Source: a virus
DNA: 64,000 nucleotides
Strand: one strand, 5' to 3'
IMG/VR virus record: IMGVR_UViG_3300045988_079296
Span: 1-64,000 of that record
In this document: in pieces, positions 28,069 to 30,801 of the stretch
Layout of the letters: each line of letters begins with the position of its first letter
Numbering within the stretch: the first letter of the stretch is position 1
The notes under the pieces: generated by a model
Told to the model about the DNA's origin: nothing
The model's database searches: none
Seen by the model: the letters and a program-made list of their open reading frames with translations, nothing else
Translations under genes and position numbers: made by a program

Positions 28069-28448
28069 TTAATTGTTAATTGTGAAAAATCAATACAATC
28101 TTCGTTCATCCATCCTACAAGATAATCGGACTTTTTGGAATTTGAGAGCTTTTGAAAATCGCTCGGTTGCATCCCGTTCTTGTTAAGATAGGACTGAAAG
28201 CCGTCAACCATTAAGGCTATGCGGCTACCTTTCATAACAATGTCTTGTATATCTTTCGGAAGGTCTTCAATTTTCTCCGTTCCTTCGATAGCTTTGTGAA
28301 ACGCTTCGGACTGCCACGGTTCAAGCAACGGGAACTTCCCTTTGAACGGTATCAAGTCGCTCGGTTTCTTTAGGCTTACATATTTGTTCGCCCTACCAGC
28401 TACCACTGAAACTAATCTTTCTCTGTTCATAACTTTACTTTTTAACAA
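28065..28448 (-). CDS. Hypothetical protein
   Basis: 127-aa ORF overlapping both neighbours. No motif recognised. Confidence 0.55.
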   Translation of the reverse strand: MLKSKVMNRERLVSVVAGRANKYVSLKKPSDLIPFKGKFPLLEPWQSEAFHKAIEGTEKIEDLPKDIQDIVMKGSRIALMVDGFQSYLNKNGMQPSDFQKLSNSKKSDYLVGWMNEDCIDFSQLTIK

Positions 28449-30801
28449 TTACTTTGCTACGGTTGAGAATAATCATGAAAGAGTTTGGTCCACCGTTTCC
28501 ATGAGGCTCTACAATCGCATCAATACCTTTCAATGCAGCATACGTTCCAATAGCTTCCTTTGAACCGCTTCTGACTGACTCGTAGATGCCAGACATTATA
28601 TCTCCATTTGGGTCTTTAGTTTTCTTCAAGTCATTCAACTCTCCAATCTTCGTATTCAATTCATTCTTGGTAAGTTTAATATCGGCTTGAAGTTCGTTTA
28701 CCTTAGAACCTATGTTATCAATCGCTGCCGTTACCTTTTTGTTAATAACGTTGTAATGCTCTTTCATCAACCAATCCGCAAATCTCCTTACTGGATAGTT
28801 ATAAGGCTTGGAAAAGGCATTCTTTCGCTTGATAGCGTTATTCTCGTACTGGAAACGGCTAAACATGAACGGCTCTTTTGAGTTAGGAAGTTTGAACACA
28901 TATACGTCCGTTCCTTTTCCTTTCTCCGTTACAGTACCTCCATTCTTCTTGACCCAATCGAACATCTTCTTTTCGACAAAGTCTTCAAAGCTCGGATAAT
29001 CTGGTTCACCTTGGTCGTTCGTAGCTCCCCAATCGGTATTGTCTATTTCCAATTGATGCATTACAAGAGTGTCCTCATCCCAGTGCATCTTAGTCTTGAT
29101 GTCCTTCTCGGTTTTATCCGTTATATTGTTAAGGTCATCCTGCTGTTTCGATAACTCGGCATTAAGGGTATCAATCTCAAGCTGCTTCGCATCAACTGCT
29201 GCTTTGTCAAATGTTACCATGGAAAGAATTTCTTTCTTTAGGTCTGGCACCATTGCAACGTTCGCTTTCGGGTCAAGAATACATTCCAAGATTTCTCCCG
29301 AACTACCTGCATAACTTCTTGCATTCTTATACGCATCTGAACTCTTGTAAGTAGTCTTGGTATTATCTTTGTTGTTCGTTCCGTCATTTACGTGAGCATA
29401 AATTCCCGAACCGTGTATTCCAATCGTTCCGTAAAAACAATTGTCATTATATCGGAAGTCATCAGCGTAATATTCTGCATCGTGTCCACCTCCCGAAGAT
29501 AATCCACGGAACATTTGATATTTGGCGTTCTTAGCCATATTCCAATAAGTAGTTTCATCCACTACCTCTGGACGTGCCGTGAACCCTCGTTCCTCGCAAA
29601 TAGCATTCAAAAGCTCCCAACCGTTTGTGTAGTTAGTTGCTTGTAGTTTTGACCAATAGTCTCTACCAGGTTGAGCTTTCCAAATAGCGTCCAATTCATC
29701 ATCGGTCAACTCTCGGTACATATCCGCATCGCTCTTGAGCTTTCTCGGAACTATTTTGCGATTGCCCTTGTTTATCTTAGTTTCAAGATTGTTCTTGATA
29801 TTTTGTAGGTCTTTGAAACGTCCGTCAAATACTCCTACTAAATTTGAATTGCTCTGAACTAAGAACCCGATAACATCGTCACGCTTCTTTAAAAGCTCGT
29901 CAATTTGATTGACCTTATCCTGCAAAGAAAGATTTCCGACAACAGATGGATTGTATTTCTCCATTGAATCGAAGTCTGAAACGGTCTTGCCGAATGTTTT
30001 CTTTGCTCCTTGCGCCCGATACTCCAGCGCACCTCCGTTATCTACTCGGATAATCCTACCAGCGGAGTCAACCAAGCAATTGTCGTTTTGATAAACATCC
30101 CAGTTAGCAAGAAGAGCGTCCACCGCAAAACCCTTTGCCATTTCATCATAATCAGAAGCAGAAGGCATACGGGTCATTGGGATGAACTTAGATAGCATGA
30201 TTGCTTCTCCGTTCTCTTCGTACAATTCAAAGTCGGGAACTCGTAAACCAAGCAAATCATAGAGTTGGTTGGTCAGATACTCGGACTTTACGTGTTCATT
30301 GGACGTATTACTGCCCTTTTTCATCACGTACTTATTGCCCTTAGCATCTTCAACCAGTTCCGCTCCCGTACTTCCACCTAACCTCTTAATGACCTTTAGA
30401 GTGCTTAAATCGGTTGGAAAAAGTTCATTAACAAATTTCTGTTTTGCGGCAATTTTAGCATCGTCAACTTGACGTCCTATCTTGTTACCCGCAGTTGTAT
30501 TCTTTAGTACACGCCAATCGTATTGAGTTTTGGCGTTTGGAGTTGCCGTATAAATATAGACAATACCATCCACAACCTTCGTCTGACCTGGCACGATAGC
30601 CTTACAAATTTCTTCGTCAGGCTCTATGCCGTTTAAGTGGTCGTGTAAAGACTTCGTGACGCATACATGATACTCATAATCGTCAATAAATTCGGATTGA
30701 GTTTTGTAAGCGTCACAAGCCTTTATCAGAAGGTCATCGGATGCTTTGCCCTCCGAATTATGAAGGGCAATAGTCTCCAATGCTTTCCTTAGTTGTTTCA
30801 T
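28435..30801 (-). CDS. Large multidomain protein: atypical kinase-like domain, possible ART-like segment, coiled-coil C-terminal region
   Basis: 788 aa. GGSTGAELVEDAKGNKYVMKKG, ALLANWDVYQNDNCLV and IRVDNGGAL resemble a kinase Gly-loop/Lys, catalytic loop and DxG. YQMFRG, GIHGSGIYAH and GEILECIL resemble an R-S-E ADP-ribosyltransferase pattern, but weakly. Confidence 0.75.
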   Translation of the reverse strand: MKQLRKALETIALHNSEGKASDDLLIKACDAYKTQSEFIDDYEYHVCVTKSLHDHLNGIEPDEEICKAIVPGQTKVVDGIVYIYTATPNAKTQYDWRVLKNTTAGNKIGRQVDDAKIAAKQKFVNELFPTDLSTLKVIKRLGGSTGAELVEDAKGNKYVMKKGSNTSNEHVKSEYLTNQLYDLLGLRVPDFELYEENGEAIMLSKFIPMTRMPSASDYDEMAKGFAVDALLANWDVYQNDNCLVDSAGRIIRVDNGGALEYRAQGAKKTFGKTVSDFDSMEKYNPSVVGNLSLQDKVNQIDELLKKRDDVIGFLVQSNSNLVGVFDGRFKDLQNIKNNLETKINKGNRKIVPRKLKSDADMYRELTDDELDAIWKAQPGRDYWSKLQATNYTNGWELLNAICEERGFTARPEVVDETTYWNMAKNAKYQMFRGLSSGGGHDAEYYADDFRYNDNCFYGTIGIHGSGIYAHVNDGTNNKDNTKTTYKSSDAYKNARSYAGSSGEILECILDPKANVAMVPDLKKEILSMVTFDKAAVDAKQLEIDTLNAELSKQQDDLNNITDKTEKDIKTKMHWDEDTLVMHQLEIDNTDWGATNDQGEPDYPSFEDFVEKKMFDWVKKNGGTVTEKGKGTDVYVFKLPNSKEPFMFSRFQYENNAIKRKNAFSKPYNYPVRRFADWLMKEHYNVINKKVTAAIDNIGSKVNELQADIKLTKNELNTKIGELNDLKKTKDPNGDIMSGIYESVRSGSKEAIGTYAALKGIDAIVEPHGNGGPNSFMIILNRSKVIVKK

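Follow-up and report, generated by a model that had tools for sequence, protein, structure and literature searches.

The subject of this analysis is one gene in a virus sequence, IMG/VR record IMGVR_UViG_3300045988_079296, of which positions 1 to 64,000 were studied (64,000 nt, here called the window). A single open reading frame (ORF) beginning with ATG occupies 28435–30801 on the minus strand and encodes 788 aa plus a stop codon, according to both the ORF list and the minus-strand translation; the plus-strand frame of the same interval is riddled with stops. Coordinates below are positions in the window, and residue numbers are those of the 788-aa protein, which we call the target. It comprises an N-terminal region, a protein-kinase-like domain, and a second domain, resembling ADP-ribosyltransferases (ARTs), that is split by a large insertion. 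We interpret the target as a two-enzyme, host-modifying effector of a contractile-tailed phage, probably packed in the capsid, a proposal to which we give about an even chance.

A preliminary description, made from the sequence alone, had reported a 788-aa protein with six quoted motifs, leaving its strand unstated. The ORF is real, and position checks on the translation placed all six strings: GGSTGAELVEDAKGNKYVMKKG at aa 142–163, ALLANWDVYQNDNCLV at 229–244, IRVDNGGAL at 251–259, YQMFRG at 428–433, GIHGSGIYAH at 461–470 and GEILECIL at 502–509. A search of 5.8 billion proteins retrieved 453 homologues of the target. The best 120 of these 453 were nearly all 780–810 aa long, ranged from 100% down to 45% identity, and came from contigs of ∼90–125 kb. 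An alignment of 50 homologues (A1) is the source of the invariance counts given below. Its invariant blocks coincide with the quoted motifs, the Glu pair of GEILECIL excepted, and all 50 homologues keep the kinase residues as well as R432, Y468 and H470. The quoted motifs are therefore not chance strings, given the 453 homologues, the invariance in 50 of them, and the matches of distant phage proteins to the profile described below.

Scans of the target with Pfam, PHROG and NCBIfam returned nothing relevant; the matches to PHROG and coiled-coil families, at E-values (E) above 0.02, were helical-repeat noise. The N-terminal region (aa 1–124; 30430–30801, minus strand) was modelled as three helices followed by a small beta unit (PGQTKVVDG..YIYT..DWRV), with predicted local distance difference test (pLDDT) scores of 41–79. 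Residues K67, P71, G72, T74, K75, G79, Y82 and W96 are conserved there in A1, and no family matched the region. It is possibly a packaging or anchoring segment.

The kinase-like domain

Fold search and invariant residues delimit a protein-kinase-like domain at aa ∼125–350 (29752–30429, minus strand). Its layout is a Gly-loop (G142–A147), K161, E174 in helix C, the loop N233-W-D235...D240-N241, the metal-binding D254 (within RVDNGG), a [FY]RAxGxxK segment, and a short helical C-lobe. The full-length protein, modelled with AlphaFold2 from A1, had a mean pLDDT of 86. When this model was compared with the PDB by Foldseek, its top 50 matches were all of the bilobal kinase fold, the best at E 6e-5 (MKK5). 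Most of the kinases matched were protein kinases (MKK5, PKA, RSK2, Lck, HipT and CtkA), with CtkA giving the best TM-score, 0.45; the list also holds the small-molecule kinases APH(2'') and N-acetylhexosamine kinase. The Gly-loop G142-G-S-T-G-A147 and residues K161, E174, D235, N241 and D254 are found in 50/50 homologues. The kinase-like core named in the preliminary description is borne out by this invariance and by a fold search that returned only kinase folds.

Roles for the catalytic residues come from the family profile, which aligned QNDNCLIDSAGRVIRVDNGG to DMPK KPDNILLDRCGHIRLADFG at E 1.1, a weak match but one in the correct HRDxKxxN/DFG register. On the basis of this alignment, D235 is the catalytic base, N241 the loop Asn and D254 the Asp of the DFG motif. 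All residues for ATP binding and phosphotransfer are present, and phosphotransfer is predicted.

The domain recurs well outside the homologues of the target. With E of 1e-21 to 1e-28, a profile of the kinase segment matched proteins of phages whose hosts belong to three other phyla, and tblastn against phage genomes found the domain elsewhere at E 1e-11 to 1e-18. Its carriers include gp117 of Pseudomonas phage Dolphis (1222 aa), gp47 of E. coli phage ECML-606-1 (2253 aa), proteins of Aeromonas, Yersinia and Morganella phages, and a series of Gordonia phage proteins such as Phendrix gp66 (1479 aa). In a multiple alignment with the Dolphis, ECML-606-1 and Phendrix proteins, the GGS, K, E, NWD, DN, RVDxG and [FY]RAxG elements are all kept. 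The distinctive segment of this kinase is RVDxGG-x-[LF]-x-[FY]RAxGxxK.

No Pfam, PHROG or NCBIfam kinase family accounts for it. HipA_C was the only Pfam kinase family to match the target at E≤1, and no PHROG or NCBIfam kinase model matched. Membership in the HipA-like kinases (PF07804) was rejected, as the match (E 0.049; 13.7 bits against a cut-off of 30.5) covers only aa 151–206, in the N-lobe. The kinase clade published for polyvalent proteins conserves a His ahead of the catalytic Asp and has an insert between the two residues (PMC5512222). We rejected this assignment also, since the catalytic loop of the target is N-W-D without the His and no curated kinase model matches it. As modelled, aa ∼125–350 is an intact protein-kinase-like fold of an uncurated, phage-borne family.

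The split C-terminal domain and its probable relation to ADP-ribosyltransferases

Beyond the kinase lie the two halves of a second domain, both on the minus strand. The N-terminal half, with its core at aa ∼395–531 (29209–29748; identified by model, profile and hhalign), contains ICxxRGFxARPxVV, strand 1 with F-R432-G433, strand 2 with G466-I-Y468-A-H470, a helix with S488-x-A-Y491...Y497, and strands 3 and 4. The C-terminal half, at aa ∼745–788 (28438–28569; identified by invariant residues and hhalign), contains YAALKG-x-D761-AI (strand 5), GNG..N773-x-F775 and hhLN780-R781-SK (strands 6 and 7); G759, D761, G768, N769, N780 and R781 are invariant in A1. A separate model of aa 352–788 (pLDDT 91.7) gives the order of elements as helices, strand 429–434 (YQMFRG), a helix, strand 467–471 (IYAHV), helix 489–498 (SDAYKNARSY), strands 503–509 and 515–517, an insertion of ∼215 residues, and strands 762–765 (after G-I-D761), 775–778 and 784–787.

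The insertion (aa ∼532–744; 28570–29208, minus strand) was mapped from the secondary structure of the models and lies between strand 4 and the D761-bearing strand 5. Two long helical hairpins (533–587 and 669–725) flank an alpha/beta subdomain (∼590–660), and W591, G592, G621, G622, P639, Y667 and H682 are invariant. The C-terminal third of the protein had been taken for coiled coil; this is right for the long helices, but not for the alpha/beta subdomain or for the last ∼45 residues, which are beta strands that rejoin the ART-like domain.

That the two halves form one domain with a large insertion, rather than an ART segment with an unrelated coiled-coil tail behind it, follows from two observations. 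A profile search with ten homologues from which aa 532–732 had been removed (A3) recovered P0141, a protein of 286 aa in which both halves are only ∼40 residues apart. Further, hhalign of A3 against an alignment of 32 small uninterrupted relatives (A6) gave a probability of 100% and E 2.7e-41, spanning both halves. The segments at ∼395–531 and ∼745–788 are a single conserved domain, interrupted. D761, the only conserved acidic residue of the domain, stands ∼290 residues downstream because the insertion splits the domain.

In known ARTs the target-recognition (ARTT) loop sits between strands 4 and 5. From its location at the corresponding position, the insertion probably selects the substrate. 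Its size varies among relatives, from 20–100 residues in small members to ∼200 in Phendrix gp66 and ∼215 in the target, and the Phendrix insert is unrelated in sequence to that of the target. Foldseek against predicted viral structures matched several uncharacterised phage proteins across the entire C-terminal half, with E from 1e-3 to 8e-6. A protein of Bacillus phage SP-15 and one from an uncultured phage matched over ∼180–190 columns, and a homologue of 31% identity aligned at 1e-34.

The domain belongs to a very large, phage-associated family. A profile of its N-terminal half (A4) matched at least 869 clusters at E≤1e-3 among 1.84 billion cluster representatives (clusters at 50% identity), and no Pfam, NCBIfam or PHROG model covers the family. 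Its members occur as standalone proteins of 200–350 aa, as proteins of 450–600 aa, and as giants with 3–5 copies. The 32 small relatives have a mean column identity of 16%, and at least 30/32 keep equivalents of R432-G433, G466, Y468, D761, N780 and R781 (R432 in 32/32, Y468 in 32/32, D761 in 30/32; the D, N and R in 30–31/32). Phage_Mu_F was fused to the domain in 7/65 relatives and, in a second set, in 21/48, while NUDIX was fused to it in 4/65. The giants P0150 (2703 aa), P0144 (1423 aa), P0157, P0162 and P0164 have 3–5 tandem copies of the domain, here also called R-Y-D after R432, Y468 and D761, and P0144 also ends in a canonical PF03496 ART. The MuF-type proteins P0256 and P0329 each have one R-Y-D domain and one canonical R-S-E ART. 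A tblastn search of the phage collection with a MuF-fusion copy of the domain had no match at E≤1e-3. No link was established between the split domain and the Ct_MAD domain of Jamet et al., mapped in that paper to the COG2369 C-terminal region.

One further resemblance was oddly regular: the A6 profile segment QGFDxKPxVVsxxEld....fRG matches each repeat of cyanobacterial phycobilisome linkers (QGYDAEIDSYVESEEY...PYFRGFKY). Against the PDB entries 8imn_5 and 9k9w (CpcN, Glr1262), A6 scored a summed E of 1.9e-4 over a short GYDAEIDSYV...FRG stretch. We rejected kinship with these linkers, whose domains are helical; the likeness is probably a short-motif coincidence.

Does this family belong with the ARTs? 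The elements of the split domain run strand (R-G), helix, strand (G-x-G-x-Y), helix (S-x-A-Y), two strands, variable loop, strand (Y-D-A-I), strand. ARTs and PARPs share such an order, and G-x-G-I-Y, an S-x-A-Y helix and Y-[D/E]-x-I are motifs of the PARPs. On the models, the element order and the positions of conserved residues fit the ART plan. The invariant R432, Y468 and D761 stand where ARTs have H or R on strand 1, Y or S on strand 2, and E or D on strand 5, with strands taken from the model. When 65 distant relatives were searched against Pfam, ART-PolyVal matched in 5/65 and PARP in 5/65 at E≤1; the best ART-PolyVal match was at 2.3e-5, yet under the gathering score. Where coordinates were seen, these sub-threshold matches overlie domain copies: ART-PolyVal at 152–291 against the domain at 105–212 in P0171, ART-PolyVal at 166–247 against 101–211 in P0178, and PARP at 974–1002 against 913–988 in P0144, the last on the corresponding G-x-G-x-Y region. 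The preliminary description's remark on a PARP-like GIY segment was apt in this respect. Foldseek of the C-terminal model against the PDB listed three PARP1 entries and Aeromonas exotoxin A as the main globular matches among coiled-coil ones.

Several results weigh against ART kinship or activity. The best E of the Foldseek search was 0.56, and the PARP matches, at E ∼3–5 and probability ∼0.05, were non-significant, probably because the 215-residue insertion breaks local alignment. No Pfam ART was found in the target, nor in the ten insert-deleted homologues at E≤10; profile searches of PDB sequences with A1, A3 and A6 yielded no ART; and every ART-PolyVal and PARP match in relatives was below Pfam thresholds. 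With hhalign, nothing was found against the ART region of Dolphis gp117 (aa 950–1222 around PF03496) or against the whole Roseovarius RPP1 vRNAP, and hidden Markov model searches of RPP1 vRNAP likewise gave nothing. In a separate search, phmmer with the canonical ART tails of the Dolphis and ECML proteins against the collected proteins matched P0274 only. On strand 1, Arg stands where the H-Y-D/E clades have His, and a catalytic Glu is lacking. In an alternative register, the final hhLNR-x-K-h-h-h hairpin resembles the ExE-LLxRG of R-S-E ARTs, with a hydrophobic residue at the Glu position. The domain can also adjoin a complete R-S-E ART in one protein. Its chemistry could differ from that of known ARTs, or be absent.

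The R-S-E assignment was wrong in its details. The preliminary description had drawn its Glu from GEILECIL, but E503 is kept in 11/50 homologues and E506 in 26/50, both lie in strand 3, and there is no S-T-S. Conservation at the motifs it quoted divides: the kinase set and R432 are invariant, but E503 and E506 are variable. What stands is that the ART-like segment is a real and widespread domain, though a split one, and probably of the ART superfamily. A toxin-type R-S-E ART was rejected, as strand 2 is G-I-Y-A-H without S-T-S, ExE is lacking, and PF03496 does not match. Membership in PF18760 (H-Y-D) was rejected because strand 1 has Arg, not His, in every member examined. By the tests run, the target falls outside PF03496, PF18760, PF00644 and HipA_C. 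Weighing these results, we consider it likely that the split domain belongs to the ART superfamily, and see the case for NAD+-dependent transferase activity, predicted from sequence, as evenly balanced. R432, Y468 and D761 are the predicted NAD+ site, and we infer that R-Y-D is a variant of the H-Y-D set of polyvalent proteins.

The two domains of the target meet again elsewhere. In Phendrix gp66 (4749–9188 of its sequence, L002), whose gene comes right after that for the portal, the kinase occupies aa 99–248 and the R-Y-D domain at 1083–1223 plus 1426–1474; ∼800 uncharacterised residues separate the two. In Dolphis gp117 and ECML-606-1 gp47, a canonical PF03496 ART stands behind the same kinase, in place of the split domain. 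A further 28/187 clusters show the plan of kinase plus split domain. Phages of Bacteroidota-like, actinobacterial and proteobacterial hosts all pair this kinase family with a C-terminal module of ART type, of which two unrelated-looking versions occur. Literature searches for a described kinase–ART virion protein found none. It is conceivable, although we find it doubtful, that kinase plus ART is a conserved functional unit of phage-delivered effectors and not a chance fusion, with both activities acting together on one target. If so, the two could be coupled, for example as sequential phosphorylation and ADP-ribosylation or as a composite modification, and the R-Y-D domain would be a new catalytic ART clade with a modular target-recognition insertion at the ARTT-loop position.

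These data bear on whether the split domain is an enzyme at all. It could instead be a degenerate ART, or have some other fold, and bind a ligand or target or fix the protein in the capsid, with the coiled-coil insertion serving oligomerisation or docking and the kinase as the only enzyme. Such an arrangement would suit the absence of a catalytic Glu with E503 and E506 variable, the absence of a significant ART match by Pfam, PDB profile or Foldseek, and the presence in P0256 and P0329 of the split domain beside a complete R-S-E ART, where it need not supply ART activity. However, the R, Y, D, N and R residues are near-invariant over 32 distant relatives at 16% identity, which fits an active site better than a docking surface. 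The domain is found alone (200–300 aa), in tandem, and in many MuF fusions as their only cargo, like toxin and effector domains, and it replaces a canonical ART behind the same kinase. We judge a kinase-only protein rather unlikely.

The NUDIX fusions raise another alternative, that the target acts on small molecules: the ART-like domain on NAD+/ADP-ribose-derived signals and the kinase on a nucleotide or sugar, blunting NAD+-based anti-phage immunity. Phage-packaged domains for NAD+ and ADP-ribose have been argued often to counter diffusible, ADP-ribose-derived immune signals (PMC9503650), and the small-molecule kinase matches named above, N-acetylhexosamine kinase and APH(2''), are in keeping with such a role, as is NUDIX in those 4/65 relatives. 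Yet protein kinases are both the best and the most numerous fold matches, the catalytic loop is in the protein-kinase HRDxKxxN/DFG register, and an insertion that is large and variable, lying where the target loop would be, is suited to recognising a macromolecule. We regard small-molecule substrates as quite unlikely and retain proteins as the proposed substrates of both domains.

Genomic setting and phage lineage

The genes around the target are all on the minus strand, and the target lies between the portal and MuF-like genes on one side and the protease and major capsid genes on the other. They are given here in transcription order. The large terminase (51526–53196) is followed by helicase and exonuclease genes and then by the portal (41203–42936; phrog_12, E 3e-52), and next comes a 635-aa protein (39290–41197) without a Pfam or NCBIfam match. 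At 35922–36854 lies a 310-aa MuF-like head morphogenesis protein, identified by a profile made from MuF-fusion relatives (E 0.0012, over 18 residues only) and by its C-terminal CKHC...SPIHPYCRC, a zinc-ribbon-like signature of MuF/SPP1 gp7 head morphogenesis proteins; it had no Pfam match at E≤0.01. A radical-SAM/SPASM protein (34964–35920; PF04055 at 1e-15, PF13186 at 9e-12) and uncharacterised proteins of 228, 479 and 660 aa precede the target. The last of these, directly upstream (30806–32788), matched only phrog_1250, of unknown function (E 9e-15), and had no Pfam or NCBIfam match.

After the target come an uncharacterised 127-aa protein and, at 27341–28068, a GH108 lysozyme domain (137 aa) and a PG_binding_3 domain (105 aa), identified by Pfam in separate, abutting ORFs. 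Then follow the prohead maturation protease (N-terminal part), with a possible scaffold-like extension (25663–27261; phrog_1028, E 6e-38), the major capsid protein (24140–25639; phrog_752, E 4e-80) and the tail sheath (18768–20390). A 531-aa protein at 12526–14121 (minus strand) has an N-terminal M23-type metallo-endopeptidase/lysin domain (several PHROGs, E down to 7.5e-18) and is likely a tail-associated wall-degrading enzyme, as found at the ends of tape-measure and tail-tip proteins.

The preliminary description had set the gene in a head operon near MuF, and the gene order agrees with it, as does the very frequent fusion to MuF of relatives of the C-terminal domain. The order 479-aa protein, 660-aa protein, target, 127-aa protein, GH108, PG-binding, protease, capsid is maintained in L007, a relative whose copy of the target is 45% identical. 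The position of the 660-aa protein is kept there (684 aa in L007), as is the split GH108/PG_binding_3 layout (12775–13538), which represents either a two-part endolysin in the head module or virion-associated wall-degrading proteins. The radical-SAM/SPASM gene sits inside the head module, with the MuF-like gene on one side and the effector gene on the other; the equivalent stretch of L007 has genes of 555, 240 and 275 aa, with no Pfam radical-SAM or SPASM family recorded. The 660- and 635-aa proteins of the head module are candidates to be packaged as well. BLASTP of the neighbouring 660-, 479-, 635-, 228-, 127- and 310-aa proteins against the Dolphis, ECML and Phendrix polyvalent proteins found no relation, so the target is not one piece of a split giant protein.

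The major capsid protein is SPO1/Herelle-like, with 46% identity to the Bacteroides phage DAC16 group and 39% to a Chryseobacterium phage; by this protein, Bacteroides and Chryseobacterium phages are the nearest cultured relatives. Together with the tail sheath gene, this capsid type marks a myovirus, with a contractile tail. A crAss-like phage, suggested by contigs of ∼97–100 kb, was rejected on the same two grounds, the capsid being closest to those of Bacteroides DAC phages. The lineage, at ∼97–125 kb, is plentiful in public metagenome assemblies. The window has a GC content of 41% and nearly all of its ORFs of at least 100 aa lie on the minus strand; no tRNA or tmRNA gene was detected by ARAGORN in the 64,000 nt.

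From the position of the gene in the head module, the synteny kept in L007, and the fusion of relatives to head proteins (MuF and minor capsid), we infer by analogy that the target is packaged in the virion. A point against is that the target itself is not fused to MuF, the case for packaging coming from gene context and relatives. The target might also never be ejected, acting late in the producing cell (for example on capsid or assembly proteins) or forming a structural part of the head or neck with relic enzyme-like domains. A head-module position shows only late co-expression, and the target is unfused to MuF or portal, both of which such a role would accommodate. Relic domains sit poorly with kinase catalytic residues that are all invariant down to 45% identity and in the phages of other phyla. 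Moreover, giant polyvalent proteins and MuF fusions, read as packaged and injected effectors, contain both domain types (PMC5512222, PMC5576092). We see little chance that the target stays behind, and prefer packaging followed by delivery.

Proposed function and comparison with known systems

ARTs and kinases are among the domains of polyvalent proteins (Iyer et al. 2017, PMC5512222), and giant polyvalent proteins and MuF fusions have been interpreted as packaged, injected effectors (PMC5512222; Jamet et al. 2017, PMC5576092). ARTs and Nudix proteins are often packaged in heads, especially in myoviruses (PMC9503650). The company kept by the split domain (MuF, NUDIX, tandem arrays) is ART-like as described in these three papers, an argument by analogy.

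Under the effector reading, the target would be produced alongside the head proteins, enclosed in the capsid, and released into the host together with the DNA. Early in infection, host proteins, for example of the transcription, translation or defence machinery, would be phosphorylated by the kinase and ADP-ribosylated by the ART-like domain, with the insertion picking the target of modification. The strategies of T7 Gp0.7 and T4 Alt would be combined in one polypeptide. If this is true, one virion protein joins phosphorylation, as by T7 Gp0.7, and ADP-ribosylation, as by T4 Alt, at the onset of infection, and the insertion at the target-loop position offers a handle on the host target. That this kinase recurs beside an ART-type module in phages whose hosts are unrelated lets one frame a testable hypothesis in which the two activities are coupled. 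Very often carried as MuF cargo, the family of at least 869 clusters is uncatalogued; naming it and establishing its chemistry would annotate many phage and prophage genes.

Compared with T7 Gp0.7, CtkA and HipA/HipT, the target likewise has a kinase of phage or conflict-system type with a reduced C-lobe. CtkA and HipT are among its fold matches, and HipA_C matches weakly on its N-lobe. It differs in showing no family-level sequence match, in its loop NWDxxxxDN without the His, and in the distinctive RVDxGG...RAxGxxK.

With T4 Alt and other R-S-E ARTs (PF03496) the target shares a head-associated late gene, F-R-G on strand 1, and a final hhLNR-x-K hairpin like ExE-hLLxRG. By contrast, it has no S-T-S, no ExE and no PF03496 match, and the two domain types coexist as distinct modules in P0256, P0329 and P0144. 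Likeness to the PARP and diphtheria-toxin (H-Y-E) ARTs lies in G-x-G-I-Y, the S-x-A-Y helix and Y-[D/E]-x-I; the differences are Arg for His and Asp for Glu in the split domain, and the lack of a significant match. ART-PolyVal/Tox-ART-HYD2-like domains (PF18760) share with it a phage and polyvalent context, tandem repeats, the strand-2 Tyr and the strand-5 Asp, and their sub-threshold matches fall on domain copies in relatives. The target differs from them in the strand-1 Arg-Gly in place of His, in giving no match itself, and in the 215-residue insertion before strand 5.

Measured against the polyvalent and MuF-fused effectors as a class, the target has only two catalytic modules, is unfused to MuF, portal or hub domains, and neither of its modules matches the Pfam models built for polyvalent proteins. 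It resembles them in being a multi-domain protein with kinase-type and ART-type modules encoded among head genes. Its C-terminal family is often fused to MuF and repeated in giants, and its kinase domain is also found inside polyvalent-type phage proteins of 1222–2253 aa. Most likely, then, the general kind of protein is a known one, the polyvalent or packaged effector, built here from two uncatalogued domain families whose pairing is newly exposed.

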